Shown here: positions 6,674 through 57,296 of the stretch, one piece after another | Numbering within the stretch: the stretch's first letter is position 1 | Layout: the number at the start of each line of letters is the position of its first letter | Source: an uncultured Gammaproteobacteria bacterium | Lineage (GTDB): Bacteria; Patescibacteriota; Microgenomatia; Levybacterales; GWA1-39-11 | DNA: 64,000 nt | Assembly: GCA_964409875.1 (NCBI GenBank) | Contig: CAYPEN010000002.1 | Location: forward strand, 1,067-65,066 | Direction: 5' to 3' | Made by a program: the position numbers and the translations under genes | Notes under the pieces: model-generated | Seen by the model: only the letters and a program-made list of their open reading frames with translations | Told to the model about the DNA's origin: nothing | The model's database searches: none

Positions 6674-6685
6674 ACAATTTAAATT

Positions 6686-7039: not shown

Positions 7040-7562
7040 AAAGGTGTAGATAAGCCTCGCACAAAATCTTGAGCTAGTTTAGTTTCTGCCGAAACGAAAC
7101 TTCGATGAAGCGAGGCTTTATTTCGAGGCTTAAAGAAACAAGCTCGCTTACGACGTACTGCGTTCACTTGTATAATTTCTGCTCTTAAGCAAAGCTTGAG
7201 AGCTAATAATTCCTGCTCTTAAGAGAATGAAAAATGGCGATTCCCCGAAACATAAGTTGGGAAAAGCTCACCCTCGGACCTAAATCTGAGCGTATCTGCT
7301 TTCTTTGTGCCGGAAAATCCGGTACATACCCTGTTTCGAAAGTTGTAGAGGAAAACACGACCATTTTCCATCTACTCAAGAGCATATCTAGTATATCGCG
7401 CGCCATTAACAAGTCAAGTCTTGACATCACATTTTCTTTGTGGAATTAGCAAGGGGGAGCTATCAAAACAACAAACAATATAATCATCTACTACTATACC
7501 GGTGCTATTCCTAACAATTTTTCCTCTTCTCATTCTGTGCTCCTTTCCTATATACTAATTTT

Positions 7563-8333
7563 ATGGACATTATACATGTAGTAATACTTGGGGTAATTGA
7601 AGGACTTACGGAATTTCTCCCCATCTCCTCTACTGCTCATCAAATTTTAGCCTCCCATGTCCTACAGATCCCTCAATCAGAATTTCTCACTACTTTTGAG
7701 ATTGCAATTCAAGTAGGTGCAATCGCTGCTGTTGTTGTCGTGTACTACAAAAAGATACTTTCAAACAAACCACTTTTCTATAAAGCGTGTGTCGCCTTCT
7801 TGCCGACGGGCGTATTGGGATTTCTTTTTTTCAAACATATCAAAAGCCTTCTTACCAGCTCTTTTGTACCTGTTGTTACACTTCTTGTTGGAGGAATTGT
7901 AATAATTGCTATTGAAATGTTTTTGAAAAATTCAAAACATAAAATGAAAACTACCAAGGATTTGACATACAAAGACGCGTTACTGGTAGGTTTGATACAG
8001 TCAATTTCAATGATTCCAGGGGTATCACGCTCTGCCGCTTCAATTTTTGGGGGCATGGCCATTCGCCTAAACCGGGAATCGGCCGTCGAATTTTCTTTTC
8101 TTTTAGCAATTCCGACAATGGTAGCAGCAACAGGTTTGGACCTCATCAAAGAATCAAAAACTATTACGTCAGGTCAGATATTTGAGCTAATTTTAGGTAC
8201 TCTGATAGCTTTTGTAGTAGCACTTCTTGTCATAAAGTGGCTACTTAAGTATGTTCAGAAGAATAATTTTGTGGGATTTGGTATATACCGAATTGCACTT
8301 GCTATCCTCTACTACTTAATATTTCTTAGATAG
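7563..8333 (+). CDS. uppP: undecaprenyl-diphosphate phosphatase
   Basis: Signature EGLTEFLPISSTAH and a polytopic membrane profile. Confidence 0.9.
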   Translation: MDIIHVVILGVIEGLTEFLPISSTAHQILASHVLQIPQSEFLTTFEIAIQVGAIAAVVVVYYKKILSNKPLFYKACVAFLPTGVLGFLFFKHIKSLLTSSFVPVVTLLVGGIVIIAIEMFLKNSKHKMKTTKDLTYKDALLVGLIQSISMIPGVSRSAASIFGGMAIRLNRESAVEFSFLLAIPTMVAATGLDLIKESKTITSGQIFELILGTLIAFVVALLVIKWLLKYVQKNNFVGFGIYRIALAILYYLIFLR

Positions 8334-8340
8334 GAACTGA

Positions 8341-8360
8341 GCCCGCCATGAAGGCGGGCC
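8341..8360. terminator. GC hairpin gcccgcc-atgaa-ggcgggc
   Basis: 7-bp GC stem directly after the uppP stop. It is also the left boundary of a high-GC island. Confidence 0.6.
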
Positions 8361-8377
8361 CGTAGTGTCGAACGTGC

Positions 8378-8905
8378 TCAGAATGTCCAGTTGAGCCGAC
8401 CGCCATGCTCCTGCAGGAGCTTGACGATGTTAGCCCGATTGGGGTTGGCTCGAGCTTGGACCTTGTTCACGACCCGGATAAGGAACTCCCGAACGACTTC
8501 TTCGTCCGAGGCCTCAGAAAGACCGGAGCCGCCAAGCGATATCCCGGCCATGAACACTCCGCCGAACCAGCCGACCGCACCGATGGGAAGTACGGCTGGA
8601 CGACGAGCCCAAACCTGCGAAAGGGTTTGCTGGAAACGGTGTGTCAGCTCCGCCTTCGCCCGGGCGTTGTTCCGGAATCGCGAAGCGAGGTCGCTGTTAC
8701 CGACCTGCTTCTCCCAGAGAAATGCGCTCTCCCATGCTTCCTGCATGAGCAAGGACGTTAAACGCTCGTATGTGAGCGTCGGATTGACGAGGGAGAGGTG
8801 GAAGCCGTCCCGCTCCTGCGCTTTCATCAGATCGCGCAGCATCGGTTCAACCTCCACGAAAGCTGCTTCGCAGTCCTCGGGTGTCAGGAAAAACGGTTTG
8901 TCCAA
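8378..8905 (-). CDS. hypothetical protein (175 aa) in a high-GC island
   Basis: TTG start with SD agaaaggata upstream. The overlapping plus-strand ORF is Arg/Ser-rich and looks like an off-frame artefact. Confidence 0.4.
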   Translation of the reverse strand: MDKPFFLTPEDCEAAFVEVEPMLRDLMKAQERDGFHLSLVNPTLTYERLTSLLMQEAWESAFLWEKQVGNSDLASRFRNNARAKAELTHRFQQTLSQVWARRPAVLPIGAVGWFGGVFMAGISLGGSGLSEASDEEVVREFLIRVVNKVQARANPNRANIVKLLQEHGGRLNWTF

Positions 8906-9016
8906 GATTTATCCTTTCTGTTAGTTGGGCTTGTCCGAAGGCTTCGGACACGAGCACGGCTTCCGCCGCCGGACAATTTGCCGTTGTTATCCCTCGCTAT
9001 CGCGAGGCTGGTCGAG

Positions 9017-9466
9017 TCACGCTCGTCGGCGAGCGTGGGTAGGAAGCGCGATTCTGGGATGGCGAATGTAGCATTCGCAACCCGTGTGCATATCGCGCAG
9101 CGCAAAAGCGACGTGGGCCGTATAGACGGGCCCGTCCGCCTCGGGAAGGATGATGACCGGCTCGACACTTCCGGTCTTTTCAACCTCACCGTCTCGCGGG
9201 TCGCTTTTGGCTGTCCAGGAGAGACTTACGACGAGCTCACGCCCATTAAAGCCTATCTCCCGGATTTCTCCCCACAGGTCACCGATGCGCTTTGGGCGCC
9301 GAACCTGCAGGAGCATGCCGGAAAGTTCCCGGCACGCAACGAAGTCTGCCCAGGGTATCGCAGTGAACACATGTCCTCCTGTTATACCCCGCCTCACAAT
9401 TTCCGTATAAGAAACTCTGAGGCAAGGTAAACAGAAAGTGTTTTTGCACGTTCTGTTAAAGAGCAA
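9017..9466 (-). CDS. hypothetical protein (high-GC island)
   Basis: The most protein-like frame in this stretch. The start is uncertain. Confidence 0.25.
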   Translation of the reverse strand: MLFNRTCKNTFCLPCLRVSYTEIVRRGITGGHVFTAIPWADFVACRELSGMLLQVRRPKRIGDLWGEIREIGFNGRELVVSLSWTAKSDPRDGEVEKTGSVEPVIILPEADGPVYTAHVAFALRDMHTGCECYIRHPRIALPTHARRRA

Positions 9467-9790
9467 ATCGTGAGTCCGGCATGCTGTTGCCAGACAACAA
9501 CTTACTCAGCAATTATATCAAGTGTGAAGCTAATTTCAATACTATAAGTTAAAAACCGTGAAGTTAATTGCCACGCTTCAGCCTGTGTATAATTTATTAC
9601 ATAATTTTCATTGCGTTTACATAGCAGTTTGGTAATTCTGTTACATGTCTAGTCTTGATGGAGTTTATTTAGCTGAAGAACACCCCGTAGATGAGGCGTT
9701 GGGATGCATGGTTCCGATTGCTCTGGCGATAGCCGGGCTTTTATTTTTTTTAACGAAACTCATTGCTTTTTAAGTATATTTGCCTCCTAT

Positions 9791-9827
9791 TTTCAGAAAG
9801 TTTTAAATTAAAACTTTCGCATACAAT
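9791..9827. repeat. Hairpin-GCATACAAT element copy 1
   Basis: Palindrome gaaagtttt-aaattaaaactttc followed by gcatacaat. Related to 9888-9920 and 11568-11610. Confidence 0.55.
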
Positions 9828-9842
9828 AAGTTAAGAAGATTA

Positions 9843-9950
9843 GTGAAGCGACTGAATAGGAGCGGAACAAAAACTCTTTACCATTTTTCAGGAACTTTTT
9901 AAAAAAGTTCCGCATACAATTTTGAAAAGAGGTTTACATCCCTTTTTGTT
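9843..9950. repeat. Hairpin-GCATACAAT element copy 2 (longer unit gtgaagcgactgaataggagcgg...ggaactttttaaaaaagttccgcatacaat)
   Basis: About 80% identical to 11526-11640. Contains a perfect palindrome. Confidence 0.6.
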
Positions 9951-10215
9951 GAATGCCTAAAAGATAAAGAACTGCTTCTTTCTTATATCTTCTATCCCCT
10001 CGGGAGTTTATGCGGATAGCGGGTAACTTACCTCTTTTCCCCCATCTTTTAATGGTTAAGGGACTGACCCGCAATAATTCGGCAACTTCACGGACTGTTA
10101 GAAGGTCTGGGAGAGATTCGATTGATATATTTTGATTAGCCATTTTCTGCCTTAAATTAACACTATCACTATCAAATGTATATTCAGAGTAGCAAAGAAT
10201 ATCATACCTTGTCAA
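9934..10215 (-). CDS. excisionase-family helix-turn-helix DNA-binding protein
   Basis: LLTVREVAELLRVSPLTIKRWGKRGKLPAIRI matches the Xis/MerR-type HTH pattern. Confidence 0.65.
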   Translation of the reverse strand: MTRYDILCYSEYTFDSDSVNLRQKMANQNISIESLPDLLTVREVAELLRVSPLTIKRWGKRGKLPAIRINSRGDRRYKKEAVLYLLGIQQKGM

Positions 10216-10343
10216 TACCCTAAATTGACTAATTTAGTTTTGTCAAAGACTCTCTACGATATTCATGCCCTACACTATGACACAACCTGTGACAAAAATA
10301 AGAAACGCAGGAAATTTTTGAAAGATTTGAAAATTCCGAAAGT

Positions 10344-11228
10344 CTAAGAAAAACGCTCTCTTAGAACTGCATATGCAAATCTTGGCAACGCAAGTTGTCT
10401 TTTAATTCTCCACGGCTGCATTGCAAGTCGGAATGCCCACTCCATCCCCATATCTCTCATAAACTTTGGTGCTCGTCTCACTTTCCCCGATACATAATCA
10501 AAAGCACCCCCTACTCCCATAGCAACTGTTACATCGATACTATCAAGATTTTTTGCAATCCACTCCTCCTGCTTTGGCGCACCGAAGGCAACAAAAAGGA
10601 TATCTATATGGGGTCTGGTAAGGGGTGGCTCGACTGGGGGACCCCCATTGTCCACCCGCAACCCAAACGAAGCGCGTGGTGAGGATGACGAATGGGGGTG
10701 AGGAGAGACAGGACCCCAAACTTCATTCTTCCACTTTTCACCTACAAAAACTACTCTAAGCCCCGGGTACTTTTCACGCAAGCACTCCGAAGCCTTCTCT
10801 GCTACACCCCTACTACCCCCTAAAAAGCCTATGTTAATAGGACGATTTGATGCTACAGCACATATTTTTTCCATTAGATCGGTACCAGTTATTCGTCCTA
10901 TAATTTTCTTTTTGAGTATCCTACCGGCTATGAGTACACCTATCCCATCGGGAAGGCTGAGGGTAGCACCATTTAGAACGTCTTGGAACCTCTTTGAGCG
11001 TGTGCCTAACATCAAAATTTCGGGATTTGGTGTTACTATATAGAATTTTTTTGAAGGGTTTTCCAGTCTTTTGAAGATATACTCTAAGACTTCACTTTCG
11101 GAAGCTGTCGTTATATCGGTTCCTAATATTTTTACGGAAGGTAAATTTTTTCCCATACTATACACTTTTTCGATTCTTTTCGTATGATTTTTCAAAGCTC
11201 TCTGTTGTTCATTTTTTTTACCCCTCAA
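10344..11228 (-). CDS. WecB/TagA/CpsF-family glycosyltransferase carrying an in-frame GC-rich insertion
   Basis: Contains ILGTDI...IVTPNPE...DGIGV...ILFVAFGAPKQEEWI. The true start may be the internal MGKNLPSVKILG. The insertion lies at 10612-10720. Confidence 0.75.
   Translation of the reverse strand: MRGKKNEQQRALKNHTKRIEKVYSMGKNLPSVKILGTDITTASESEVLEYIFKRLENPSKKFYIVTPNPEILMLGTRSKRFQDVLNGATLSLPDGIGVLIAGRILKKKIIGRITGTDLMEKICAVASNRPINIGFLGGSRGVAEKASECLREKYPGLRVVFVGEKWKNEVWGPVSPHPHSSSSPRASFGLRVDNGGPPVEPPLTRPHIDILFVAFGAPKQEEWIAKNLDSIDVTVAMGVGGAFDYVSGKVRRAPKFMRDMGMEWAFRLAMQPWRIKRQLALPRFAYAVLRERFS
10612..10720. repeat. GC-rich element copy 2, in frame inside the glycosyltransferase CDS
   Basis: Encodes VWGPVSPHPHSSSSPRASFGLRVDNGGPPVEPPLTRPH, placed where TagA homologs have a short acidic helix. 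Confidence 0.6.
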
Positions 11229-12913: not shown

Positions 12914-14113
12914 ATGCCCAAAAAGACACTTTTTACTACAGTTATTGTACTTCTTCTCGTAAGTCTTGTTGCCTATGCTTTTATTCTATATGGCAAAGGC
13001 TATCGCCTCAATTTATCCGGTAAAGGAAGCAAGATACTTGCAGGTACCGGGCTTCTCGTTCTGACAAGTACGCCAAATGGGGCTCGCGTGTATCTTAATG
13101 ACAATTTCACAACCGCAACGGACGACACGATAAATTTACCGCCCGGTGACTATGACGTTCGAATAGAAAAAGACGGATATTATCCTTGGAAAAAGCATGT
13201 CGTACTCAAAAATGAGGCTGTTACAAAAACGGATGCGGTTCTTTTCCCCGTTGTTCCTAAGCTTGAAGGCGTTACTCTTCTTGGGGCAGAACAACCATTG
13301 GTAGATAAAACCGGAAGTTTTGTGGCCTATAAAGTAAGCTCTTCTTCTGCTGAGAACAACGGCATTTATATTCTTAACATCAATAGGCCTATCATTTCGT
13401 TTGGAAGCTCTTCAAAGCAGATTGCAAGTGATAAGGTTGATAATTTCTCAAAAGCAACAATGGAATTTTCCCCCGATGGACTTGCGCTTCTTGCAACAAT
13501 TCCTGCCCCTGCAGGAGACAGGATTTATCTCTTAAAAACAGATATGCTCAATACGGAACCTCAAAATGTAACATTTACTATCGAACAGGTTAAAAAACAA
13601 TGGGAACTTATGCAACAGCAGTTGGACAAGAAATTCATAACAAGCCTCCCGCAGGCAACACGTACATTCGTACAGGAAAACTTTTCAGAACCACAACTCT
13701 CTCCTGAGGGCGACAAAATTCTTTATATTGCTTCACAAAGCGCTACAATGCCCCACTTCATAAATCCTCCTCTTCCCTCAACAAACTCAACAGTTGAAAC
13801 AAGAAATCTAGTAAAAGGATATGCATACGTCTATCAAATAAAAGAAGACAAAAACTACCTTCTGTATGCTTTAAGTGATGGCGGACAATTACCTCATTTC
13901 ATATGGCACCCCTCTTCTGCGCACTTAGTGTTCATTGAGAACAAAAGGATAGTTTCGATGGAATATGACGGTGGTAATAAAACTACGCTGTATGCAGGTC
14001 CATTTGACCCCTCTTTTCTCTATACATGGCCTGATGGCTCAGGACTTATTATACTTACCAACTTTAACGATGAAACAGTACCTCCCAATTTGTACCGCGT
14101 AGGCCTCAGATAA
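12914..14113 (+). CDS. N-anchored PEGA-domain protein with beta-propeller-like C-terminal region
   Basis: N-terminal TM segment. PEGA-like NGARVYLNDNFTTATDDTINLPPGDYDVRIEKDGY. SD gaaagga upstream. Confidence 0.65.
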   Translation: MPKKTLFTTVIVLLLVSLVAYAFILYGKGYRLNLSGKGSKILAGTGLLVLTSTPNGARVYLNDNFTTATDDTINLPPGDYDVRIEKDGYYPWKKHVVLKNEAVTKTDAVLFPVVPKLEGVTLLGAEQPLVDKTGSFVAYKVSSSSAENNGIYILNINRPIISFGSSSKQIASDKVDNFSKATMEFSPDGLALLATIPAPAGDRIYLLKTDMLNTEPQNVTFTIEQVKKQWELMQQQLDKKFITSLPQATRTFVQENFSEPQLSPEGDKILYIASQSATMPHFINPPLPSTNSTVETRNLVKGYAYVYQIKEDKNYLLYALSDGGQLPHFIWHPSSAHLVFIENKRIVSMEYDGGNKTTLYAGPFDPSFLYTWPDGSGLIILTNFNDETVPPNLYRVGLR

Positions 14114-14234
14114 ATTATTGCTAATAGTCAATAGTCGATAGCTAATAGTCAAAACTATTATTTCAAATTATTCATTTAACTTAATGCTTCCCACTACTAG
14201 CTTTTTGCTCTTAACTATTAGTTTTTAAGTTAAT

Positions 14235-14266
14235 CCGGGGCGCTGAGTTGTGCTCAAACGCCCCGG
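14235..14266. terminator. GC hairpin ccggggcg...cgccccgg
   Basis: 8-bp GC stem downstream of the minus-strand operon. It is the left boundary of a high-GC island. Confidence 0.5.
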
Positions 14267-14282
14267 AAGGAACAGGTCAGTG

Positions 14283-14699
14283 CTAGCCGTGGCCCTGAAG
14301 GAGGACCTCGTTTTGCATAGCTGCGGCAAAGGCCGGAGTCAGCTGGTCAGGACGGATGTCCACGGGTTCACCCGGATGGTGAACCTCTCCATGCAGCTGA
14401 AGATCCGAACGAAGCCTTGCAAGATCAGCCACAGGCAAACCGAGTGCCGTGGCCGTTTTGGCGTCTTGCCTCTCTCGCGCCCTGCGCTCTCGGCCGTTCA
14501 CCCAGCGGTGAAGCTGGAAGAGCAAAACCTCCGCCTCCCTGAGCTTTTCAGGCTCAAATTGGAGAAGGATTTCGCCTTCCCCGCCGGCCTGCTTGAGCTC
14601 ATCGTTCTCGACTCGGGTCCGAAAACCCTCGTCGCTGTAGATGCGAGCCAGCTGTAGGGCCAGCTCAAGGACGTCTTTGTCAGGAATAATATCAGTCAC
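14283..14699 (-). CDS. hypothetical protein (138 aa, GTG start), high-GC island
   Basis: SD aaggaagagg upstream of the GTG. Confidence 0.45.
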   Translation of the reverse strand: MTDIIPDKDVLELALQLARIYSDEGFRTRVENDELKQAGGEGEILLQFEPEKLREAEVLLFQLHRWVNGRERRARERQDAKTATALGLPVADLARLRSDLQLHGEVHHPGEPVDIRPDQLTPAFAAAMQNEVLLQGHG

Positions 14700-14744
14700 T
14701 CTGCCTCTTCCTTACTGGTGGAAGAACCGGAAGCCGTAGTCGGC

Positions 14745-15065
14745 TTAGTGTTCTTCCATGAGCTGCCGGTCGAGCCGGATTTGCTGCGCCACCCTTCTCT
14801 CGTGCCGTCCTTTTTCAAGAGCACAAACAGCTCCCTCAATGAAGCTCACCACGAAATAAAGGAGAAGTGCCCAAAGGGCTCCTGCCGTAACCCAGAGGAT
14901 TGCGGACGGAAACACAGCCCCACCACTGATAAAAACGCCCGATGTGGCGAGTTGTGGCAGGGTCATCCACCTGATGGTTTTCTGGCCAAGCTTGTAAGCC
15001 TGCCATACTCCCACGAGTGGCAAGGAGAGCACGAAGAGCATCTCCCAGAACGCAAGTTCGCTCAT
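14745..15065 (-). CDS. hypothetical membrane protein (106 aa)
   Basis: Three hydrophobic helices. SD aaaaggaaac upstream. Confidence 0.45.
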   Translation of the reverse strand: MSELAFWEMLFVLSLPLVGVWQAYKLGQKTIRWMTLPQLATSGVFISGGAVFPSAILWVTAGALWALLLYFVVSFIEGAVCALEKGRHERRVAQQIRLDRQLMEEH

Positions 15066-15547
15066 CTTGTTGTTTCCTTTTCGAAGCTGAGGCGCTCAGC
15101 CGTTTCGGGCTGGGTGCCAACGTAGATGGTCATCTTTCCTTGGTAGGAAGGATATGTCTTGACGATGTCCTGAGCGATGGTTGCCGCTTCGGTTTTTACT
15201 TCGAGGGCGCTTTTGAAAGGCGTCACCTCATTGTGTTGATACAGAACTTCCTTGACTTGTTCATAGAACATGTCGAGGGTTTGTGGGGCCACGAACAAAG
15301 CGGGGTCTACACACGCGGTGAAAACCAACCCGGTAACGGTGACATTCTTCCCGTTCCCGCCTGTAACGGTAAAATGAGCATGTTGCAGCTCTTTTTTTAC
15401 CGGTGACAGTTTCTTGCACGACGTAAGTGGCGTGCCGACGGCGATGTACGAGGCCTTTGGAGAACTCGTACTGTGGTCTACGGAGTAGGCCAGGACGACG
15501 GCGCATAACGCCAAAATAATGATGCTGATTGAGATGCGGGGTCCCAT
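15062..15547 (-). CDS. hypothetical secreted protein (161 aa)
   Basis: Start at MGPRISISIIILALCAVVLAYS (signal peptide) with SD gggagaggaaga upstream. Confidence 0.45.
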   Translation of the reverse strand: MGPRISISIIILALCAVVLAYSVDHSTSSPKASYIAVGTPLTSCKKLSPVKKELQHAHFTVTGGNGKNVTVTGLVFTACVDPALFVAPQTLDMFYEQVKEVLYQHNEVTPFKSALEVKTEAATIAQDIVKTYPSYQGKMTIYVGTQPETAERLSFEKETTR

Positions 15548-15816
15548 GTCTTCCTCTCCCTGGAAGTGTCTGGTGCAGGGCATTTCTGTCCTGCGGGTTC
15601 GGATACTGACCTGTTGTTAATGTGCGTGAGCGCAAAACGCGCGCCCAGCATGCAAAAAAACACCAGGCGGCGCAATGCGCCAAACATCAAATTATATCAA
15701 AAAACACAATCCATTTCAAATACTACGGGATAGTATTTGAGGCTGACATATGCACTTGTAAGTTGAATAAAAATACTAAATACTAAAGGTACAACCGTTT
15801 TTAACGGCTTTATTCT

Positions 15817-16695
15817 ATGTGGGAAAAAAAGCACATTAAAAGAATTCAGGTAATTGCCATCTGCGTCATTTTTGCGTTAGTGTTATCGGTAAGACTTCAA
15901 GCAGTTACCCTTTACCCTAAATTCTCAAAAAGTGGTGACAGCGTTGTAACGGCTACTGTCGGTCAGTTTCATATTACTGTTTCAGGCTACCAGTCCCCCT
16001 ATGCCTCCATCATATTAAAAACACAAAACGGAACATTCCTCGCCTCCACAACTGCTGATGCAAAAGGGTATTTTTCTATATCAAACATACTTATTAATAG
16101 CTCAAATTTGCAGTATTGTTTTCAAGCAGTGGACTTTAAGAGGATTGGAGAATCTGATTCATGTATTACCATTACAGGAACTATTAATAAAGATTTAACG
16201 TATTCGGACATATTTCTGCCTCCGACCATAGGACTTTCCAAAAAACAAATTAATGCGGGTCAAGATGGGGTAATTTTCGGGTACTCAATGCCGGGGGCAA
16301 CTGTTTCACTCGATATTGAAGGAAAAATTGTGACGGTTACAGCCGACAGCACCGGGTATTATACCTATACATATAAAAATGTTCCTGAAGGAGTATTCCG
16401 GATTTCCGCTTCAGCAGAGCTTTCAAGCAAAAAGTCACTCGCGCCTACCAACGATGTTGTTCTTGAATCACTTTCAGTACCCCAACAGATAACGGAAACC
16501 GGCAAGAAAGTTGTTCAAAAAATTGAGAAGAAAGTTCCGTTTGATTTCTTTCCTTTCCTTCTTATCGCGCTTGCCTTCCTGGTTGCGATAGGAATTCTCC
16601 TCTATAAATTAAGGTTCAAAGTATGGGTTATATTTATTGATTTTATTAGGCGCAGAAAAAAGATGCATCATGACTGGTTCCTTGATAGATGGTAA
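15817..16695 (+). CDS. surface protein with signal peptide and C-terminal TM anchor
   Basis: Signal peptide, beta-rich middle region, C-terminal hydrophobic helix followed by basic residues. Confidence 0.6.
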   Translation: MWEKKHIKRIQVIAICVIFALVLSVRLQAVTLYPKFSKSGDSVVTATVGQFHITVSGYQSPYASIILKTQNGTFLASTTADAKGYFSISNILINSSNLQYCFQAVDFKRIGESDSCITITGTINKDLTYSDIFLPPTIGLSKKQINAGQDGVIFGYSMPGATVSLDIEGKIVTVTADSTGYYTYTYKNVPEGVFRISASAELSSKKSLAPTNDVVLESLSVPQQITETGKKVVQKIEKKVPFDFFPFLLIALAFLVAIGILLYKLRFKVWVIFIDFIRRRKKMHHDWFLDRW

Positions 16696-16784
16696 TATCC
16701 GTGAAAAATCGTGAAAAATGTGATGTAGGCTCTTGACATATACATACCTTTCTGTTTCTAATAGTAATAGCATTTAGATAAAAT

Positions 16785-18248
16785 ATGCACTTATTGTATT
16801 CAATTAGCCTCAAAAAGCTAGCACTTATTAGCGGTGTTTTTGTCGTATTGTGCATATTGTCAACTCGAATAACCCATGCAGCTTCTCTTTCTTCTGCTTC
16901 CGCAACACTTACTACTTCCCGTCCCTCTGCCTCCTCCCCGGTAAGCGCAGATGCAGCATCAGGCGTGGGCCAACTCTCAATTTTTAATAACGGCTCACGG
17001 TATTTGGCTTCCGATTCAGCCCAAATTGTGAGAGGTACGGGAATTATTAGCAATAACCCGCTAAGAATCGCTTCACAATCCGCAGCACTAACAACCGTCT
17101 ATATTTCAGGAACGCTAGGAACGGCTGCAGGAGCCGGCGCTGATGTATTGTATGTTCCTATTACTGCAATGCACACGGTAGGATTCACTGCAAATACTAC
17201 CATTCCAAGCAGCGGTAAAATTGTTATTACTTATCCCGGAACATTTACAAATAGCGCTTCGCCTTCTGCTTCTACATTTGCATTCAACGGACTTACGACA
17301 GGGAATGTAAAGTCATTCCCTGCTTCTGCCTGCAATTCTGTTTCGATTTCCTCAAGCGGCGCGCCTACAATTACCTGTACGACAAACGCAGTTCAAACTG
17401 CAGGAACCAACATACAAATTTATATCGGTTGTTCTGCTGTCGGTGGCTCTGGAGGCTGCACTACACAGGTTCCGACGTTAATCAATCCGACAAAGGCAGC
17501 AACTGCTGGTACTGCTGACATATGGAAAATCGGAGTCCAAACACAAGATGCATCTTCCGTCACCCTGGATAATTCAACGGTTGCAATAGGAACGGTCGAG
17601 TCGGTAACCGTACGTGCTACTATCGACCCGAGCCTTACATTCAGTATCGCTGGCATCAATTCGGGTGTCGCAGTAAACAACGGGAATGGAGGCTGTAGTG
17701 AGTCAGAACTCACTAATAGCGGCATCAACTCTTCAGCCACAGAGGTAGGTCTTGGCGTATTGTCAATTGCCCCCGCGGTTAATACAAAACTCAATAATAT
17801 AGCAGCCCAATTGTTAACAGTAACGACAAATGGAGCCAACGGATACTCAATCACCGCAACCTCCCCTGCTTCACTTATCAATCCAAGCACAGGATTCTTC
17901 CTCAACTCCAACACTACGCCACAGCTATTCCCTGCAACCGGACATTTCTTCGGCCTGCACGCATGTGGAGTTGACGCAGACTATTTGAGCACTAAATGGA
18001 CATCAACTACCAGTGACACTAACTGTAACTCGTATATAACAGGCTCTGCAGGAAATGTATGTAAGTATGGATGGCCGACTGCAACAACGCCCTTTGTTAT
18101 CGCACAAGACACCTCAGGTCCTATCGGGAACGGAGTACCTACAGGAAACGGGTTAACGTCAATATCATACGCCGCGACACAGGATGTGACGCTGCCACCT
18201 GGACAATATCAGACGGTTATAACGTACGTTGCGACACCGTCGTTCTAA
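16785..18248 (+). CDS. secreted Thr/Ser/Gly/Ala-rich surface protein (487 aa), paralog of 19411..20871
   Basis: Signal peptide. About 50% identical to the 19411..20871 product. Extreme C-terminus PGQYQTVITYVATPSF. Confidence 0.7.
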   Translation: MHLLYSISLKKLALISGVFVVLCILSTRITHAASLSSASATLTTSRPSASSPVSADAASGVGQLSIFNNGSRYLASDSAQIVRGTGIISNNPLRIASQSAALTTVYISGTLGTAAGAGADVLYVPITAMHTVGFTANTTIPSSGKIVITYPGTFTNSASPSASTFAFNGLTTGNVKSFPASACNSVSISSSGAPTITCTTNAVQTAGTNIQIYIGCSAVGGSGGCTTQVPTLINPTKAATAGTADIWKIGVQTQDASSVTLDNSTVAIGTVESVTVRATIDPSLTFSIAGINSGVAVNNGNGGCSESELTNSGINSSATEVGLGVLSIAPAVNTKLNNIAAQLLTVTTNGANGYSITATSPASLINPSTGFFLNSNTTPQLFPATGHFFGLHACGVDADYLSTKWTSTTSDTNCNSYITGSAGNVCKYGWPTATTPFVIAQDTSGPIGNGVPTGNGLTSISYAATQDVTLPPGQYQTVITYVATPSF

Positions 18249-18347
18249 TAGCTAATAGTCGATAGACAATAGGTAATAGAAAGAGCTAGTTTGAGTTATT
18301 GAACCAATTTAGCTATTAGCTATAAACTATTAACTATAAATTAAATT

Positions 18348-19346
18348 ATGTCTACTGCTCGGAAGTGCAAAACTAAATATTTGGCAAAAAGTGGCCTCAT
18401 TTATCTGGTCATATCTTTTGGCCTCATATTGAGCGCAAAAATGATTTTTGCGCAACAGCAGCAGACCATCCGCACTATCACCATTGTTCCCCCATCCGTT
18501 GACTCAAAGTCCGACCCGGGTGACAAAAAAGAAGGAATCTTAAAAGTTGTTAATTCAAGCGACCAACCACTTACTTTTAAGGCACAGGTCAAGGATTTTG
18601 TTGTGGAAGATACTGTCGGAACCCCTCATATTCTCCCCGACAACACTTTATCCAAAAAATACTCAGCTTCATCCTGGATTGCTGTCGTTCCTGACACTTT
18701 TACTATCCAACCTGGTAAAACACAACAGTTAAATTACTATCTTCAAGTTCCGGCTGATGCACGTCCAGGAGGCCACTATGCAGCAATTGTCTATGAGCCC
18801 CAGGAGTTAATAGGTGTTCAAGGAACAGGAACTGGCGTTGAAACGCACGTTGGTACCCTCTTCTATGTAAGGGTTAATGGCACTATTGTTGAGAATGCAA
18901 CTGTCAAAAAATTTGTGGCAGACCCATCGATAGCCGAATATGGTCCTGCTACAATCAAGACGCAAATCATAAACTATAGTGACTCACACATCCGACCTAT
19001 TGGAACAGTTTCAGTCAAAAATCTACTCGGCCAAATGGTTTACAGCGAAAAACTGGAAGAGCACAATATCTTTCCTGAGGCAACGCGTGACTTTACAACA
19101 ACTATCGGCAAAAAGCTGATGTTTGGGCCATATACAGCAGAACTTAAGGCAAATTACGGGACCAACAACAACCTCACACTTTTTGCAACGACTACATTCT
19201 TTATTTTCCCATGGAAGATTGTATCTGTTGCCCTCCTTGCAATAGTTGCTCTTATTCTCTTCTTCATCTTCTGGAGAAAGAACAAGAAAAAGAATACGCC
19301 TGTTGCTGCTCCTCAGCCTCAAATGCCTCAACAACCGGTTGCTTAA
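18348..19346 (+). CDS. surface protein with signal peptide and C-terminal TM anchor (DUF916/CscA-like architecture, by inference)
   Basis: Signal peptide, beta-rich domain, C-terminal TM followed by KNKKKN. Resembles 35906..36874. Confidence 0.65.
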   Translation: MSTARKCKTKYLAKSGLIYLVISFGLILSAKMIFAQQQQTIRTITIVPPSVDSKSDPGDKKEGILKVVNSSDQPLTFKAQVKDFVVEDTVGTPHILPDNTLSKKYSASSWIAVVPDTFTIQPGKTQQLNYYLQVPADARPGGHYAAIVYEPQELIGVQGTGTGVETHVGTLFYVRVNGTIVENATVKKFVADPSIAEYGPATIKTQIINYSDSHIRPIGTVSVKNLLGQMVYSEKLEEHNIFPEATRDFTTTIGKKLMFGPYTAELKANYGTNNNLTLFATTTFFIFPWKIVSVALLAIVALILFFIFWRKNKKKNTPVAAPQPQMPQQPVA

Positions 19347-19410
19347 CATAGGCGTGACACAAAACTCTTATTTGACAATTCTTGTTGAAATTGGCTTAAA
19401 TGGAAGATGT

Positions 19411-20871
19411 ATGAAATTTGTAGCGCAAGTTGTCTTTGTAGTGGTTTTTATTCTTTTGTTCATGTCTGTTGCCAAAACCGAGGCTGCTTCTTTAACCAGC
19501 GCAAACGATACACTCTCAACATCACGCCCTTCTCCTTCAAGCCCTCTGAATGCGAATGCATCCTCATCTGACGGTTCTTTGACTATCTTTGACAACGGCT
19601 CACGGTATTTGGCTTCCGATTCAGGAATACTGATACAAAAAGGGACAACCAATATTATAAAAACAGGCATTCCTATTGCATCTCAATCCTCAACGCTTAC
19701 TTCAGTGTACCTCAGCGGCACCGTGGGTGCCGGAGCCGGAGCGGGAGCAGATGTATTGATAGTTCCTATTACGGCGATGCATACAGTGCAATTTACGGCT
19801 GCAACCACAATTCCTATCGGAGGAACTATCGTCATTACCTTTCCCGGTTCGGCGAATAATACTGCTTCTCCTTCAGCATCCACCTTTGCTTTTAACAATC
19901 TTTCAACCGGAAATATAAAGGCAAATTTTTCGGCTGGGACAGGAGCCTGTACTTTCAGTGTAAATGCTCCTACCGTAACATGTACTGTCGGAACAGGTGC
20001 TGTCACTGCCGGAACAATTGTAACTATACTTATTGGATGCTCTTTAAATTCAGGTTCAAGCTGCACTACTCAAGTACCCACCCTCATCAATCCTACAAAA
20101 GGGAACCAAACAGCAGGTGCTGCTGATGTCTGGAAAATAAACATTAAGACAACAGATGGAGTCAGCGACCTTGATACTGCTACTGTATCGGTAGGAACAA
20201 TAGAATCAGTAACAGTACGTGCAAACATTGACCCTTCCCTCACTTTTACCATTACCGGGGTAAATAATGGAACGGCAGTCAACAACGGCAACACAACAGG
20301 CTGCCTTCAGACGGAAACGACCAATACAGGCATAAATGCTACTGCTACCGAGGTAAACCTAGGAACACTTTCCAATTCCCCTACAGCTACAGATACAAAA
20401 GTAGGAAATATTGCTGCCCAGCTTATCACTATTTCGACAAATGCTGCCAACGGATATGTTTTGACGGCTACCTCATCCGGCCACCTACGAAATCCGTCTA
20501 CTGGCTATTTCCTGACAGATAACACGACTCCTCAAGTCTTTCCGGCAAGTGGTGCAAACTTTTTTGGATTCCATGCCTGTGGGCTTGATACGTACAATTC
20601 AGATATTGGAACAACATTTTGGAATTCTACAGCTTCAAATACTGCGTGCAACAGTTATATCAACGGCTCAACCGGTAATATTTGCAAATACGGCTGGCCT
20701 ACCACTGTGTCTCAAATATTATTGGCATCAGACACAACAGGTCCAATAGGAAATTCGCTTGTGGCCGGAAATGGACTCACTTCGGTCTCTTACGCAGCCG
20801 GAGCTGATGCAGGAGTACCTCCAGGACAATATTCTACGGTTGTAACGTACGTTGCAACCCCAGCATTCTGA
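19411..20871 (+). CDS. secreted Thr/Ser/Gly-rich surface protein, paralog of 16785..18248
   Basis: Start set at MKFVAQVVFVVVFILLF, because the ORF-track extension overlaps the previous gene. C-terminus PGQYSTVVTYVATPAF. Confidence 0.7.
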   Translation: MKFVAQVVFVVVFILLFMSVAKTEAASLTSANDTLSTSRPSPSSPLNANASSSDGSLTIFDNGSRYLASDSGILIQKGTTNIIKTGIPIASQSSTLTSVYLSGTVGAGAGAGADVLIVPITAMHTVQFTAATTIPIGGTIVITFPGSANNTASPSASTFAFNNLSTGNIKANFSAGTGACTFSVNAPTVTCTVGTGAVTAGTIVTILIGCSLNSGSSCTTQVPTLINPTKGNQTAGAADVWKINIKTTDGVSDLDTATVSVGTIESVTVRANIDPSLTFTITGVNNGTAVNNGNTTGCLQTETTNTGINATATEVNLGTLSNSPTATDTKVGNIAAQLITISTNAANGYVLTATSSGHLRNPSTGYFLTDNTTPQVFPASGANFFGFHACGLDTYNSDIGTTFWNSTASNTACNSYINGSTGNICKYGWPTTVSQILLASDTTGPIGNSLVAGNGLTSVSYAAGADAGVPPGQYSTVVTYVATPAF

Positions 20872-20930: not shown

Positions 20931-22637
20931 CTAGTTCATCATTGTTTTTGGTTGAGAAACATATTGAGGTGAATGAAATGGCAATGTGACGAACACTGAT
21001 GTTCCTTCACCTACAGTTGAATTAAGCCATATCTTTCCATCGTGCTCACCTACAATCGCCTTTGAAATATAAAGTCCCAACCCGGTTCCTTTTGCCCGAT
21101 TGTGATAGTTAGCCTGTATAAAAGGCCTGAAAAGGCCCTCAATTTTCTCCCTTTCTATCCCACTTCCATGGTCTTTTACTTCAATTTCTACCGAACCTTC
21201 TTTTTTTCTACTATATACTTCGACTATCGTGTGCTCTTCTGAGAATTTGATTGCGTTGGACAACAAATTTACGATTACCTGCCCTATTCTAAGAGGATCA
21301 AAGGCAAAGACGGGTATCGTATCATCCAAGTGATTTTCCAGCAAAATTGCCCTACTGGAAGCGGCATAGGACAATTCTTCAGTGGCTTTTCTTATAACAT
21401 CATTAATATTTGCATCACTTTTTTGAATAGTAAGCTTTCCTGCCTCAATTTTGGCACTATCCAACATATCATCAATGTCTTCAAGAAGCCTTTCAGATGC
21501 GCTTTTAATGATAAGCCGCATTTTTACTTTATCCTCTTCATGTGTTTGTGAGTCCATGAGTAAATCCGCAGCACCTTTAATCGCGGTCAGTGGCGCCCTC
21601 AGTTCATGAATCATCATGTTGGTGAAAGCCTCCCTCATTTTCCTGACTTCAGCCTCACGCGTCACATCTTGCATTGTCAAGGCTACACCGATAATTCTAT
21701 CGCTCTTGTAAGAAAAGACAGGTGTAACATAAATATTGAATTTGAGGCCATGTATGTCAATATCGCGGTATATCGTACTCTTTTTCTGGAATATGACATC
21801 TTTCATTTCTGAAATAAGGTTAGGCTTGAGGTTAAAACTTGAGAGGACTTTTATGAGCTCAGGGTTGGCTTCGGAAATTTTCAAAAACCTCAGAGCTGCA
21901 TGATTGATAGTCGCAAGGGTTAATCCCTCACGCTCAAGCGTAAAGAATATTTCTCCTGATGTGAGACTTTTGACGAGCGATTCGACTTTGCCTTTTTCTG
22001 TCTCAATAACGTATTCCAGCCGGCCTATCGCAAGCTGTGCTTTATTTACGATTTTATACATCATACTCATATCCTCCTCCTGATATGCCCGGAGGTTTTT
22101 TGATGTAATATTGATGATTCCGGTAAAACGGTTGTTGAGAACCAGTGGAATGTTAAAATAACTAAGGGGAAGCGCATCATATTGTATCGAAGTGTCTACT
22201 AGTAACTCAGCTTGTGGGTCGATATGAGCCCCTTTTGCCTTTTCCACAATCGGCATATTTTTAAGGGTTTCGTCTATTCCATATACTCCTTGCAGGACCG
22301 ACTCTCTCACTCCGTGAATGTACTGGGGACCGACATTTTCGTGTGTCGTTGTCACCAATTCTAAATGGTCAGTCTCTATAATCGCATACGAAACCGAGGT
22401 GACTTGGAAGATTTTTTCGACCGTTGCAGCAATGGTAGATGCAATATCCCTAGAAGAAAGCGAATATCCTATCTTCTCGGACAATTCGCTCAAAATTGTG
22501 AGTTCAAACAATTCACGGGCTTTATCACGCTTCTCTTTGTGATATTTTTCTCGGGTATTTTTAAGCTCAAAATAGAAGTATACCGCTGTCAAAAACGCAA
22601 TCAAAAACCCGAACATAAAAAAACTTTCCCAGAACAT
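20931..22637 (-). CDS. sensor histidine kinase (TM, PAS, HisKA, HATPase)
   Basis: H-box HELRAPLTAIKGAADLL. G-boxes GSGIEREKIEGLF...GTGLGLYISK. Confidence 0.9.
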   Translation of the reverse strand: MFWESFFMFGFLIAFLTAVYFYFELKNTREKYHKEKRDKARELFELTILSELSEKIGYSLSSRDIASTIAATVEKIFQVTSVSYAIIETDHLELVTTTHENVGPQYIHGVRESVLQGVYGIDETLKNMPIVEKAKGAHIDPQAELLVDTSIQYDALPLSYFNIPLVLNNRFTGIINITSKNLRAYQEEDMSMMYKIVNKAQLAIGRLEYVIETEKGKVESLVKSLTSGEIFFTLEREGLTLATINHAALRFLKISEANPELIKVLSSFNLKPNLISEMKDVIFQKKSTIYRDIDIHGLKFNIYVTPVFSYKSDRIIGVALTMQDVTREAEVRKMREAFTNMMIHELRAPLTAIKGAADLLMDSQTHEEDKVKMRLIIKSASERLLEDIDDMLDSAKIEAGKLTIQKSDANINDVIRKATEELSYAASSRAILLENHLDDTIPVFAFDPLRIGQVIVNLLSNAIKFSEEHTIVEVYSRKKEGSVEIEVKDHGSGIEREKIEGLFRPFIQANYHNRAKGTGLGLYISKAIVGEHDGKIWLNSTVGEGTSVFVTLPFHSPQYVSQPKTMMN

Positions 22638-22700
22638 ATTTCTAGAATATAGAATTTTGAATTATGAAGCAAGAAGCTAGGAGGTATGGAAAGAGAAAAA

Positions 22701-23042
22701 CTACTTGGTTAAATTCTCAAGTTTGTCGATGGTTCTTTTGCTTCCGATAACGATAATGTACATTCCAATGACAAAACATGCGCCTTTTATAAGAAATACT
22801 CCTACCGAATACACACTACTGTAGCTTATTTGAAGATATGAATTGAGTGCATCAACAATTATTCCCATGGCCAAGAAAAGAACTCCTGTTCCAATAGTCT
22901 TAAAACCATGCGCCAGAATGCCTGAACCGAATTTCTTTGTGACTTGATACATAATGACCGCGGCCGCAATAGCCGCAAAAGCTGCTATGAATGAAATTCC
23001 ATTCACAACAATGGTTAAAAACTGTACGCTATTAAATTGCAT
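22701..23042 (-). CDS. hypothetical membrane protein (113 aa)
   Basis: Four hydrophobic helices. Lies within the HK/RR operon. Confidence 0.5.
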   Translation of the reverse strand: MQFNSVQFLTIVVNGISFIAAFAAIAAAVIMYQVTKKFGSGILAHGFKTIGTGVLFLAMGIIVDALNSYLQISYSSVYSVGVFLIKGACFVIGMYIIVIGSKRTIDKLENLTK

Positions 23043-23082
23043 ATATTAATAATATCTGAAAACTTTCTCAACTTGCAATCTC

Positions 23083-23709
23083 TTACACCTGTGCCTGTGT
23101 TGGTTGAGCAGTAGGTTGAGTCTCCGTTGATAATGGCGCATTCGCAAGTTCTTCGAGTGCTTTGTTCAAGTCCTGCATCTCTTGTGAGGTAAATGGTTGT
23201 GGACCACTCACTGATTTTTCGTTATTTTCTGATTTTGTATCCAATCCATCAAAATGAACAGCAGTCATGGGAGGAGGCTCATGAGGGACTGATGAAGATA
23301 CAACAGTATCATTTGGAGTAGAAGTTTGAGCGGTAGTTTGGGATGCTGGAATTGAGCTTGTCGTAGCTTGCACTGATATACTAGGGGTAGGTTGTTGTGT
23401 TGAGGATTGTAAACCTCCTCCAAAAGCAGTTGAGGTCGCCATGGCCATCATCCCCGGATAACTTGTCAAAATTGATTCCATCGTTTTTTTGACTATCATA
23501 CCTGAAAGCTCCACAAACTGGTTTATCAGCCCCTGAAGCATTTGCTGTGGGTCACCTTCAAGCTTGATTACATCCCCATTTACGTCCACTGTTAATCCGA
23601 TTACATTTTTTACTTTTGCAAGGGTAATATCAGGACCCAAAACGAGCATCTGCTTTTTAATCAACTCGGAGAAAAGTTTTTTGTAGTCTGTATCGCTATT
23701 GGGCATCAT
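23083..23709 (-). CDS. hypothetical protein (208 aa) with Ser/Thr/Gln-rich C-terminus
   Basis: ORF between the receiver and kinase genes, on the same strand. Confidence 0.45.
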   Translation of the reverse strand: MMPNSDTDYKKLFSELIKKQMLVLGPDITLAKVKNVIGLTVDVNGDVIKLEGDPQQMLQGLINQFVELSGMIVKKTMESILTSYPGMMAMATSTAFGGGLQSSTQQPTPSISVQATTSSIPASQTTAQTSTPNDTVVSSSVPHEPPPMTAVHFDGLDTKSENNEKSVSGPQPFTSQEMQDLNKALEELANAPLSTETQPTAQPTQAQV

Positions 23710-23821
23710 ATGGACAGGTAATGCAAATTTTTAAATTCAAATTTACAATTTTTAATTATAAGTGAAGTTCTAAAATTTAATCATTTGAATTTGATTAAAA
23801 ATTTAAAATTTCAAATTATTA

Positions 23822-24193
23822 TCATTCCCCAAGTATCCCTTTGACCTTTTTCAAAAGATCTTCATGGGAAATTTGGTATTTTAAAATGTAATCAATAGCT
23901 CCCCTATTTAATGACTCCTTTACTAGCTCGTCATGAGAAAAATTTGTAAGCATCGCAACCGGCACTTTTGCGGTAGCAGGGTCATCTTTTATCGCCTTCA
24001 GAGCATCCGTTCCACTCATATCAGGCATCATCTGATCCATGAGAATGAGATCAAAGTTGCCTGTTTTTGAGATAGATACTGCTGACGTGCCATTATTTGC
24101 GATTGTCACCTCAAAACCGCCTTGCTTGAGAACCGTTTCAAAAACTGTTGCTGTATCCTGCTCGTCGTCCACGAGAAGTATTTTCTTAGACAT
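23822..24193 (-). CDS. single-domain response regulator (CheY-like receiver)
   Basis: LLVDDE...DLILMDQMMPDMSG...K. Confidence 0.85.
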   Translation of the reverse strand: MSKKILLVDDEQDTATVFETVLKQGGFEVTIANNGTSAVSISKTGNFDLILMDQMMPDMSGTDALKAIKDDPATAKVPVAMLTNFSHDELVKESLNRGAIDYILKYQISHEDLLKKVKGILGE

Positions 24194-57280: not shown

Positions 57281-57296
57281 TGTTTCGTTTCACTCC

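Follow-up and report, generated by a model that had tools for sequence, protein, structure and literature searches.

The closest described counterpart of the genes considered here is the Pam pilus of Candidatus Mycosynbacter amalyticus, a parasite belonging to the Saccharimonadia within the candidate phyla radiation (CPR). The genes lie in two clusters within a stretch of 64,000 nucleotides (hereafter, the window) of contig CAYPEN010000002.1, from a genome of the Levybacteria (Microgenomatia, CPR). According to the preprint by Troman et al. (bioRxiv 10.64898/2026.03.03.709456), two Pam filaments were resolved by cryo-electron microscopy (cryo-EM). Their pilins, PamA and PamB, are composed of two domains, and a single linking strand is donated into the truncated immunoglobulin (Ig)-like C-terminal domain (CTD) of the neighboring subunit; conservation is highest in this linker and in the site that binds it. 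PamT is a single-domain candidate for the tip, PamC and PamD display FimC/PapD-like folds with a C-terminal transmembrane (TM) helix, and PamR combines two FnIII-like domains in an RbmA-like tandem with a TM helix and an extra N-terminal strand that is predicted to plug the last pilin. The same text describes a system without an usher, places a tail-fibre-like protein centrally in the pam neighborhood network, and stresses an ATP-synthase neighborhood. Homologues are reported there only in CPR, chiefly in Saccharimonadia and Microgenomatia, with those of Microgenomatia found only by a language-model search, at approximately 21% identity.

A second described system bears on the comparison. The WxL cluster of Firmicutes (Csc) consists of a small WxL protein, a large WxL protein, and WxLIP, which comprises DUF916, DUF3324, and a TM segment (PMC10599100, PMC9772566). 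In the published AlphaFold model of WxLIP with WxL, a disordered hairpin of WxLIP folds into a parallel strand and so fills out the WxL sandwich, which is how a pilus chaperone acts.

The window very probably encodes a divergent Pam-type donor-strand pilus, split in two, because its list of parts matches that of the Pam system item for item, with A1 as the candidate for PamR, and Levybacteria belong to the Microgenomatia. The function is likely to be long-range adhesion to a host cell. An earlier note on this DNA had proposed an undescribed surface system of anchored and secreted partners; a dedicated system of this composition, with strong co-conservation of its members, is indeed present, but it matches a pilus already described in 2026. 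On sequence comparison, the locus appears to be a further, distant branch of that system and not an equivalog, because E-values are significant (down to 2.1e-15) but bit scores remain below the curated cutoffs. The genes concerned, in window positions, are as follows.

15817–16695, plus strand: A1, 292 amino acids (aa), PamR-like candidate anchor or terminator
16785–18248, plus strand: S1, 487 aa, predicted two-domain major pilin with an N-terminal beta-sandwich, a linker, and a C-terminal Pam-type pilin domain
18348–19346, plus strand: A2, 332 aa, membrane-anchored putative pilus chaperone, PamC/PamD-like and WxLIP/DUF916-like
19411–20871, plus strand: S2, 486 aa from its ATG, second predicted two-domain major pilin, paralogue of S1
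33763–34407, plus strand: M, polytopic membrane protein directly upstream of S3, counted in by synteny alone
34413–35183, plus strand: S3, 256 aa, PamT-like small pilin with a short N-terminal region and a Pam-type pilin domain
35906–36874, plus strand: A3, 322 aa, second membrane-anchored putative chaperone, distant paralogue of A2
37583–48760, plus strand: giant surface protein, 3725 aa, syntenic with the pilus genes and of uncertain membership

The open reading frames (ORFs), signal peptides, C-terminal anchors, and C-terminal motifs of these proteins were as the earlier note had given them. A hydrophobic signal-like segment opens all six of A1, S1, A2, S2, S3, and A3, and, among these six, only A1, A2, and A3 end in a hydrophobic helix followed by basic residues (the hydrophobic segments of A1 and A3 span residues 239–274 and 290–319, respectively). 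The mechanically called ORF of S2 begins at a TTG at 19246. S1 and S2, each composed of 27% Ser and Thr, are 61% identical to one another, which bears out their paralogy, and the resemblance of A3 to A2 holds at 22% identity over 299 residues (E 9e-15). A1, however, shows no BLAST similarity to A2 or A3; a single class of anchored proteins alternating with secreted ones, as earlier proposed, thus survives for A2 and A3 but not for A1, which appears from its sequence to represent a separate family, so that the alternation mixes two unrelated anchored classes.

The pilin assignment begins with S1. Its AlphaFold2 (AF2) model (predicted local distance difference test score, pLDDT, 81.6) displays an N-terminal beta domain at approximately residues 32–268 and a C-terminal beta domain at 284–487. 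Linker residues 271–281 fall below a pLDDT of 50 in this monomer model, yet they belong to the most conserved segments of the family, which is expected of a donated strand. Pilin domains of chaperone-usher systems (PapGII, FimF/G, CfaB, and Saf) are among the Foldseek matches of S1; the whole-chain search was noisy, and the integrins and MSCRAMMs that it returned at low TM-scores were set aside. The family alignment (62 sequences, 49–86% identity) contains six invariant cysteines, and invariant paired cysteines fit extracellular pilins. Its conservation peaks at S1 residues 41–50, 71–80, 155–165, 229–237, 272–286 (the linker, ESVTVRATIDPSLTF), 353–360 (GYSITATS), and 479–487 (ITYVATPSF); since the linker and the groove-side strands are among these peaks, they lend indirect support to linker exchange.

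Two NCBIfam profiles describe Pam pilins, namely NF058579 (PamT, an equivalog with a cutoff of 240 bits) and NF058581 (Pam_pilin_C, 55 bits). NF058581, CPR_Pam_pilin_C, is matched by 23 of the 62 members of the S1 family (best E 2.3e-8), and NF058579, CPR_pilus_PamT, is matched by S3 with an E-value of 7.8e-8, residues 18–254 aligning with positions 7–239 of the 241 in the model. Every member of the S3 family (46/46) matches PamT (best E 2.1e-15), and 45 of the 46 match Pam_pilin_C as well. The two pilin families are themselves related: residues 318–487 of the S1-family profile align with residues 103–256 of S3 (hhalign probability 95.7%, E 9.5e-9), a relation also found pairwise by tblastn (E 5e-5). 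A search with the S3 profile returned 1620 representative clusters (50% identity) at E<=1e-3. Orthologues of the S1 type and of the S2 type can be told apart in loci L006, L007, L009, L011, and L012, so the duplication that produced the two large pilins is old.

The linker consensus of the pilins is VtVRAtvDPsLtFtI, and its core, V-x-A-x-[V/F]-[D/G/Q], recurs in S3 (NYkVRAGFQYI) and near the mature N-terminus of A1. Because of the latter recurrence, A1 looks, from its sequence, like a PamR-type terminator and anchor candidate. The segments that may complete a neighboring groove are as follows.

17595–17642, plus strand: S1 residues 271–286, VESVTVRATIDPSLTF, inter-domain linker and candidate donated strand
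15940–15987, plus strand: A1 residues 42–57, SVVTATVGQFHITVSG, conserved linker-like N-terminal strand, candidate filler of the groove of the last pilin
18795–18848, plus strand: A2 residues 150–167, long lower-confidence loop between the Ig domains, candidate complementing strand

Among the anchored proteins, A1 was found to match Pfam Big_6 (29.9 bits, cutoff 27.6) and CarboxypepD_reg (32.6 bits, cutoff 32.3), both barely above threshold. Its orthologues, present as 40 related-locus ORFs, always adjoin the pilin or chaperone genes, and the N-terminal strand is kept with the consensus xVxAxVGxxxLxxSGyxSPyAS in 35 of 39 of them. The sole PDB matches of A1, to the receptor-binding domain of coronavirus spike at E ~0.01, are spurious.

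The AF2 model of A2 (pLDDT 88.6) contains two Ig domains, at residues 44–151 and 168–286, and a TM helix at 289–314. Its top Foldseek matches in the PDB are the WxLIP structures 9i1y and 9i25 of Enterococcus faecium (E 2.6e-12), the second of which is WxLIP bound to a long WxL protein, followed by CfaA, Caf1M, FimC, EcpB, CsuC, and DraB (1e-9 to 1e-7). Sub-threshold matches to Pfam WxLIP_PGBD (cutoff 27.3 bits) were obtained for A2 (20.2 bits, E 6e-4) and A3 (19 bits, E 1.5e-3), as well as for 20 of the 63 members of the A2 family; the WxLIP_HBD model is matched by neither A2 nor A3, and no NCBIfam chaperone model matches the A2 family. Its matches to STEVOR and RIFIN are artefacts of TM or low-complexity sequence. 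The loop between the Ig domains, residues 150–167, has a block pLDDT of 69–71, against more than 90 in its flanks. By analogy with the G1 strand of chaperone-usher chaperones and with the WxLIP hairpin, it is a candidate complementing strand, a role that is drawn from the AlphaFold model of WxLIP with WxL and from the Pam preprint.

To place these genes in relatives, window proteins were mapped onto 43 loci encoding S1 relatives, taken from one genome per species; those with informative names derive from Candidatus Levybacteria/Levyibacteriota or from 'Patescibacteria group' metagenome-assembled genomes. About 20 loci display a unified layout in which M, an S3-like gene, an A3-like gene, a pilin, an A2-like gene, an A1-like gene on the opposite strand, and the giant protein follow one another. 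About 20 others share the split layout of the window, in which a gene for a PEGA protein, A1, a pilin, A2, and sometimes a second pilin stand alone. The clusters at 15.8–20.9 kb and 33.8–48.8 kb of the window are two halves of one system, because they are contiguous in the approximately 20 unified relatives. The unified block of locus L001 adjoins leuS, which in the window is the neighbor of the S3 half, and anchored and secreted genes are co-inherited throughout the mapped loci. S3 and A3 are adjacent in 21 loci, and A3 always adjoins the small pilin.

M, which possesses an acidic C-terminal tail and a weak match to Pfam DUF6057 (E 2.9e-4), is syntenic with S3 in 17 related-locus ORFs. The available part of the preprint (10.64898/2026.03.03.709456) mentions no counterpart of M among the Pam components, and it may be an accessory or assembly factor. 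A homologue of the giant protein lies 3' of the pilus genes in approximately 19 loci. The giant ORF at 37583–48760 has a long repetitive body rich in Gly, Thr, Ser, and Asn, and its homologue in L001 carries an N-terminal phage-integrase SAM-like domain (Phage_int_SAM_1). It is a possible counterpart of the 'tail fibre-like protein' that the preprint describes in the Pam neighborhood.

The spacer between S3 and A3 (35184–35905) measures 722 nucleotides and is non-coding and AT-rich (GC 0.34), and it contains no repeat or RNA family that could be found. The corresponding gap in relatives is mostly below 150 nucleotides but reaches approximately 1.1 kb in L046. Scans with Rfam and for promoters and terminators added no information.

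The three secreted proteins end in a shared motif, the last strand of the pilin domain.

18198–18245, plus strand: S1 residues 472–487, C-terminal motif PGQYQTVITYVATPSF
20821–20868, plus strand: S2 C-terminal motif PGQYSTVVTYVATPAF
35133–35180, plus strand: S3 C-terminal motif AGLYENAITFIAVPSI

This likeness far exceeds chance and extends beyond paralogues. A hidden Markov model (HMM) of the last 40 residues matches S1, S2, and S3 alone among the ORFs of the window (E 1e-20, against more than 1 for the rest). In 47 related loci, the same HMM matches 72 ORFs, all of the S1, S2, and S3 families, and every complete member bears the motif. Counted from the end, G-15 is present in 72/72 of these ORFs, Y-13 in 71/72, and Y-7 in 72/72, with a constant offset between motif and stop in all 72. 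P471, G473, Y475, T480, Y481, T484, and F487 are invariant in the alignment of the 62 S1 relatives, and the AF2 model of S1 places a strand at residues 480–485 (block pLDDT 93–94 over 461–480 and 82 over 481–487). The motif is thus supported as a family hallmark situated in a beta-strand of a donor-strand-exchange pilin domain.

In chaperone-usher pilins, the C-terminal F strand runs along the edge of the groove, and the cleft of the chaperone grips the terminal carboxylate, as established for PapD and FimC; these pilins also possess a conserved C-terminal motif of alternating hydrophobic residues with a near-terminal aromatic, like the pilins here. By analogy, the motif is most likely the groove-edge strand of the acceptor domain, and neither a donated strand nor a sorting signal. 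The first of these alternatives is disfavored because the donated strand in Pam pili is the inter-domain linker. The fixed position of the C-terminus points to docking of its carboxylate in the chaperone, as known for PapD and FimC, and a groove-edge strand that is also the docking end for the chaperone would explain the invariant distance to the stop codon.

The earlier note had considered a terminal strand used for sorting, donor-strand exchange, or docking to a partner, of which a strand of the pilin domain stands and the sorting signal and donated strand fall. An exact C-terminal position that does not vary would also be seen in a sorting or processing signal that a dedicated peptidase, a sortase-like enzyme, or a secretion system recognises. 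Against such a signal, however, no hydrophobic helix or basic tail extends beyond the motif, which forms the last strand inside a confidently folded beta domain; the Pam_pilin_C profile extends to its final position on the motif (e.g., 115–148 of 148); and the mature PamA and PamB pilins in the filament use the domain intact, as described in the preprint. Nor does any peptidase or sortase-like gene, which the earlier note had thought might accompany the cluster, recur in the conserved gene set of approximately 40 loci. A sorting or processing signal is therefore very improbable. It might also be supposed that the similarity is the product of recent local duplication, with no functional coupling to the anchored proteins, as the paralogues S1 and S2 lie side by side and are 61% identical. 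However, across 47 loci no complete member of the three families lacks the motif, S3 has nothing but the CTD in common with the others (~25% identity), distinct S1-type and S2-type orthologues occur in several genomes, and in essentially all loci whose flanks are long enough the anchored genes keep their synteny with the pilins. Mere duplication accordingly has a negligible probability, lower still than that of a sorting signal, and both readings are effectively excluded.

From the Pam cryo-EM structures and AlphaFold models, as given in the preprint, and from chaperone-usher biology, the following assembly can be outlined for the Pam-type pilus of the window. After Sec export, an anchored chaperone would hold the incomplete Ig-like CTD of each pilin and complete it with one of its own strands, A3 serving S3 and A2 serving S1 and S2. 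The linker of the next pilin (VtVRAtvDPsLtF) would then displace the chaperone strand by donor-strand exchange, which would yield a linear fibre with S3 at or near its tip and stretches of S1 and S2 as its shaft. The linker-like N-terminal strand of A1 would fill the last groove and tie the fibre to the membrane. The motif G-x-Y-x-x-[VA]-[IV]-T-Y-[VI]-A-T-P-x-F would be the last strand of the acceptor domain, and, together with the GY-x-[IL] strand (S1 residues 353–360), it probably forms the lining of the groove into which the strand of the chaperone or donor fits.

Several points weigh against the Pam assignment. No protein of the window reaches the curated NCBIfam cutoffs: S1 and S2 themselves match nothing in that search, and S3 scores 32 bits with NF058579 (equivalog cutoff 240) and 22.9 bits with NF058581 (E 7.5e-5). 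Ten distant relatives sampled from the lower part of the best 150 of the 1620 S3-profile matches likewise stay below the NCBIfam cutoffs, the best having 39.8 bits against the 55 of Pam_pilin_C, and they provide no chain to a bona fide PamT. The assignment rests on homology, structure prediction, and synteny, with the PamA and PamB structures (25PZ and 25QA) outside the comparison; in a PDB sequence set without these two entries, searches with S1, S3, the S3-family profile, and the A2-family profile found nothing meaningful. The pairing of linker and groove, the pairing of chaperones with pilins, the order of subunits, and the position of the C-terminal strand are what we infer, and in the reference system the roles of the chaperones come from AlphaFold models, not from experiments, according to the preprint (10.64898/2026.03.03.709456). 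The ATP-synthase neighborhood was not seen within 10 kb of the L001 and L003 loci. Finally, PamT is described in that text as being without a donor strand, and S3 possesses the linker-like strand YKVRAGFQY; because it keeps this strand, its role at the tip is uncertain, and S3 may be a self-capped tip or itself a strand donor.

The resemblance of the locus to WxL/DUF916 clusters, pointed out in the earlier note, holds for the anchored proteins, given the fold match of A2 to WxLIP, the tblastn similarity described next, and the sub-threshold matches in its family. Searched against plasmids by tblastn, A2 detects a 'DUF916 domain-containing protein' of Clavibacter phaseoli (E 1e-5), which passes the Pfam WxLIP_PGBD cutoff, and homologues in Deinococcus (2e-6 to 7e-5). 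The gene adjoining the Clavibacter DUF916 gene encodes a protein ending in AGDYSSTITLSLFE, and that adjoining the Deinococcus homologue one ending in GGGYLFDMTFTALALP, while small and large DUF916 neighbors on Paenibacillus plasmids end in AGTYKSVFTYTATSGI, AGTYRSVFTFTLTSGI, QGSYKALFTYKATSGI, and VGVYRSLFTFSLAKGI. The two small Paenibacillus neighbors are annotated as WxL domain proteins, one of which passes Pfam PF13731 (30.1 bits, cutoff 25), and the Pfam-positive Paenibacillus WxL proteins end in GTYKSVFTYTATSGI, the same motif as in the pilins. A regular expression for this ending matches 6 of 413 ORFs in DUF916-type loci, all of them beside a DUF916 gene, and 0 of 934 in unrelated controls.

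For the pilin CTD as a whole, homology to the WxL domain is unproven. By hhalign, the alignment reaches significance in the last ~26 residues alone (E 8e-4, probability 25%), and comparisons of the CPR CTD with 4–7 WxL-type sequences by hhalign or HMM are non-significant beyond this C-terminal part. HMM scores of the pilin CTD against WxL are 3–6 bits (shuffle p ~0.006–0.014). None of 108 members (62 of the S1 family and 46 of the S3 family) matches Pfam WxL (PF13731) at E<=10, and Trp is found at neither WxL motif position in the pilins. In relaxed hhalign alignments, the two WxL motifs fall in register with GY-x-[IL] and TY-x-A of the pilins; the positional counterparts of the first motif, D-x-R-G-x-x-A-G-W-x-L, are TNGANGYSI in S1 and SNGSAYGYTV in S3, to be compared with GRGSDAGYTLS in P. 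lautus. The earlier statement that the secreted proteins have no WxL motif is thus literally correct, yet their terminal motif matches the second WxL motif in position and sequence. A degenerate DNA pattern for the first motif gave only chance matches in viral contigs, a metagenome scan for further WxL relatives returned 4 loci only, and among the papers of the library searched none names both 'WxL' and 'donor strand'.

These likenesses could also be read as a static WxL-type surface complex, in which the anchored, WxLIP-like A2 and A3 permanently hold S1/S2 and S3 by strand complementation and no fibre is formed. The top structural match of A2 to WxLIP, including the WxLIP–WxL complex 9i25, its detection of DUF916 proteins by tblastn, the set of small, large, and WxLIP-like proteins, which equals a canonical WxL cluster, the terminal motif shared by DUF916 neighbors in Paenibacillus, Clavibacter, and Deinococcus, and the completion of the WxL sandwich by a WxLIP strand in the AlphaFold model all agree with such a complex. 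However, the nearer sequence relatives, those of PamT and Pam_pilin_C, form filaments solved by cryo-EM, according to the preprint; the pilin linker is highly conserved and unstructured in the monomer model, as for a donated strand; a terminator role would account for the linker-like N-terminal strand of A1; and Pfam WxL matches 0 of the 108 family members. A static complex is therefore unlikely, and it would be compatible with the Pam-type reading if WxL and Pam systems formed one superfamily.

Such a superfamily is proposed here tentatively, as a possibility to which we give slightly less than even weight: the Pam and WxL/DUF916 systems (Csc; Firmicutes, Actinobacteria, and Deinococcus) would be branches of one ancient, usher-less, chaperone-assisted strand-complementation superfamily of monoderm envelopes. 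The pilin motif may then be the general second WxL motif, G-x-Y-x3-h-T-[W/Y/F/L]-x-[L/A], at the exact C-terminus, the WxL domain may be an incomplete-Ig pilin domain, and WxLIP may be a membrane-tethered pilus chaperone. Many WxL clusters may thus assemble fibres or oligomers by donor-strand exchange, beyond binding peptidoglycan.

One Deinococcus locus, L063 (positions 4902–10475; Deinococcus sp. NW-56 plasmid NZ_CP026517.1), encodes a homologue of A2 (E 7e-5) that has no C-terminal TM helix. The flanking genes encode proteins of 190, 292, and 1013 aa, the first ending in GGGYLFDMTFTALALP and the second containing ...ATLTYTLTS close to its end. The locus may be a diderm counterpart of this kind of system that works with a soluble chaperone.

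The flanks of the pilin half in the window include a gene for a PEGA-domain membrane protein upstream (12914–14113, plus strand), kept in approximately 20 loci, and a GAF/HisKA sensor kinase with a response regulator downstream, in convergent orientation (20931–24193, minus strand), an arrangement of flanks also present in L003. These neighbors may be linked to the pilus genes through regulation or the envelope. Between the PEGA gene and A1, the interval 14113–15817 is GC-rich (0.48–0.52, against ~0.41 around it) and carries overlapping ORFs on both strands, of which a small protein with an N-terminal hydrophobic segment (15062–15583, minus strand) is the sole conserved one; its orthologues likewise lie between the PEGA gene and A1 in relatives. 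A similar GC-rich patch surrounds ndk at 32.6–33.9 kb.

Beside the S3 half, leucyl-tRNA synthetase (LeuRS; 29530–32559, minus strand, 1009 aa) contains an insertion of ~190 aa at residues ~243–430, just before the CP1 editing domain and bounded by '...GKSEGAEVEF' and 'FTTRPDTLFGATF'. The insertion matches alpha/beta serine hydrolases of the YdeN/RBBP9 type (PDB 1uxo, E 4.5e-7), with HSLGG as its GxSxG, and the LeuRS orthologue of L001 measures 920 aa. A hydrolase domain within an aminoacyl-tRNA synthetase is unusual.

The assignment is of use for annotation, as the Levybacteria proteins are all labeled 'hypothetical' and lie below the NCBIfam cutoffs. It also indicates that Pam-type systems are widespread in Microgenomatia, in unified and split forms, the small pilin by itself accounting for 1620 clusters. 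Of wider interest is a bridge between Pam pili and WxL/DUF916 clusters, whose Gram-positive surface proteins form a family known for 20 years and associated with adhesion and virulence. If true, this bridge would provide the WxL family with a testable mechanism, namely strand complementation by chaperones and possibly donor-strand exchange, and it would revise the claim that Pam-type assembly is unique to CPR bacteria.

Compared with other pili, the locus shares with chaperone-usher systems (Pap/Fim, Caf1, CFA/I, and Csu) the two-Ig-domain chaperone fold, an incomplete-Ig pilin domain like those of PapGII, FimF/G, and CfaB, and a predicted assembly by donor-strand exchange, which the preprint shows for Pam. 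It differs, however, in lacking both an outer membrane and an usher gene, in the tethering of the chaperone to the membrane, in a candidate donor that is an internal linker instead of an N-terminal extension, in the extra N-terminal domain of the pilins, and in a fibre that would be linear; no gene for an usher-sized beta-barrel is present in the conserved set of approximately 40 loci. Unlike the pilins of sortase-dependent pili, which bear an LPXTG-type sorting signal, S1, S2, and S3 finish with the beta-strand motif and have no hydrophobic tail, and the syntenic lists of L001 and L003 contain no sortase. The parallel that the earlier note had drawn with a pilin locus at 54–64 kb of the window is not upheld, as the proteins there are type IV pilin-like (N_methyl, T2SSG), unrelated, and unmatched by the motif HMM, and Pfam N_methyl has no match in S1, S2, or S3. 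That region (53954–63756, minus strand) encodes an N_methyl protein at 61000–62028, and a protein with N_methyl and T2SSG at 62836–63756, together with a small ORF resembling cupredoxins and two ~1000-aa proteins in which FN3-like segments occur.

With WxL clusters, the locus shares a composition of small secreted proteins, large secreted proteins with a common CTD, and a two-Ig protein with a C-terminal TM segment, in which S3 would be the small, S1 and S2 the large, and A2 and A3 the WxLIP-like members. WxLIP is the best fold match of A2, which also resembles DUF916 pairwise and by sub-threshold profile matches, and the C-terminal motif is that which ends the Paenibacillus WxL proteins, with GY-x-[IL] resembling the first motif (RGSDAGYTLS in P. 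lautus). However, the pilins have no Trp in either motif, Pfam WxL is not detected in them, and WxLIP_HBD is unmatched; moreover, WxL proteins are thought to form a static peptidoglycan-binding complex and are not known to polymerise.

The Pam pilus remains the nearest described relative. The Levybacteria sequences differ from it in being very divergent and below all curated cutoffs, in the division of the cluster between two loci in this genome and approximately 20 relatives, in the polytopic membrane protein that precedes the small pilin, in the linker-like strand that this small pilin keeps, and in the ATP-synthase neighborhood, unseen in L001 and L003. The two systems nevertheless have in common a pair of major pilins, each built of two domains with a linker between them and a truncated-Ig CTD, a small PamT-like pilin, two proteins of chaperone fold with a C-terminal TM helix, the absence of an usher, a CPR host, a candidate TM-anchored protein of two predicted Ig-like domains with a putative extra N-terminal strand (here A1, with Big_6 and CarboxypepD_reg), and an adjoining giant fibre-like protein.

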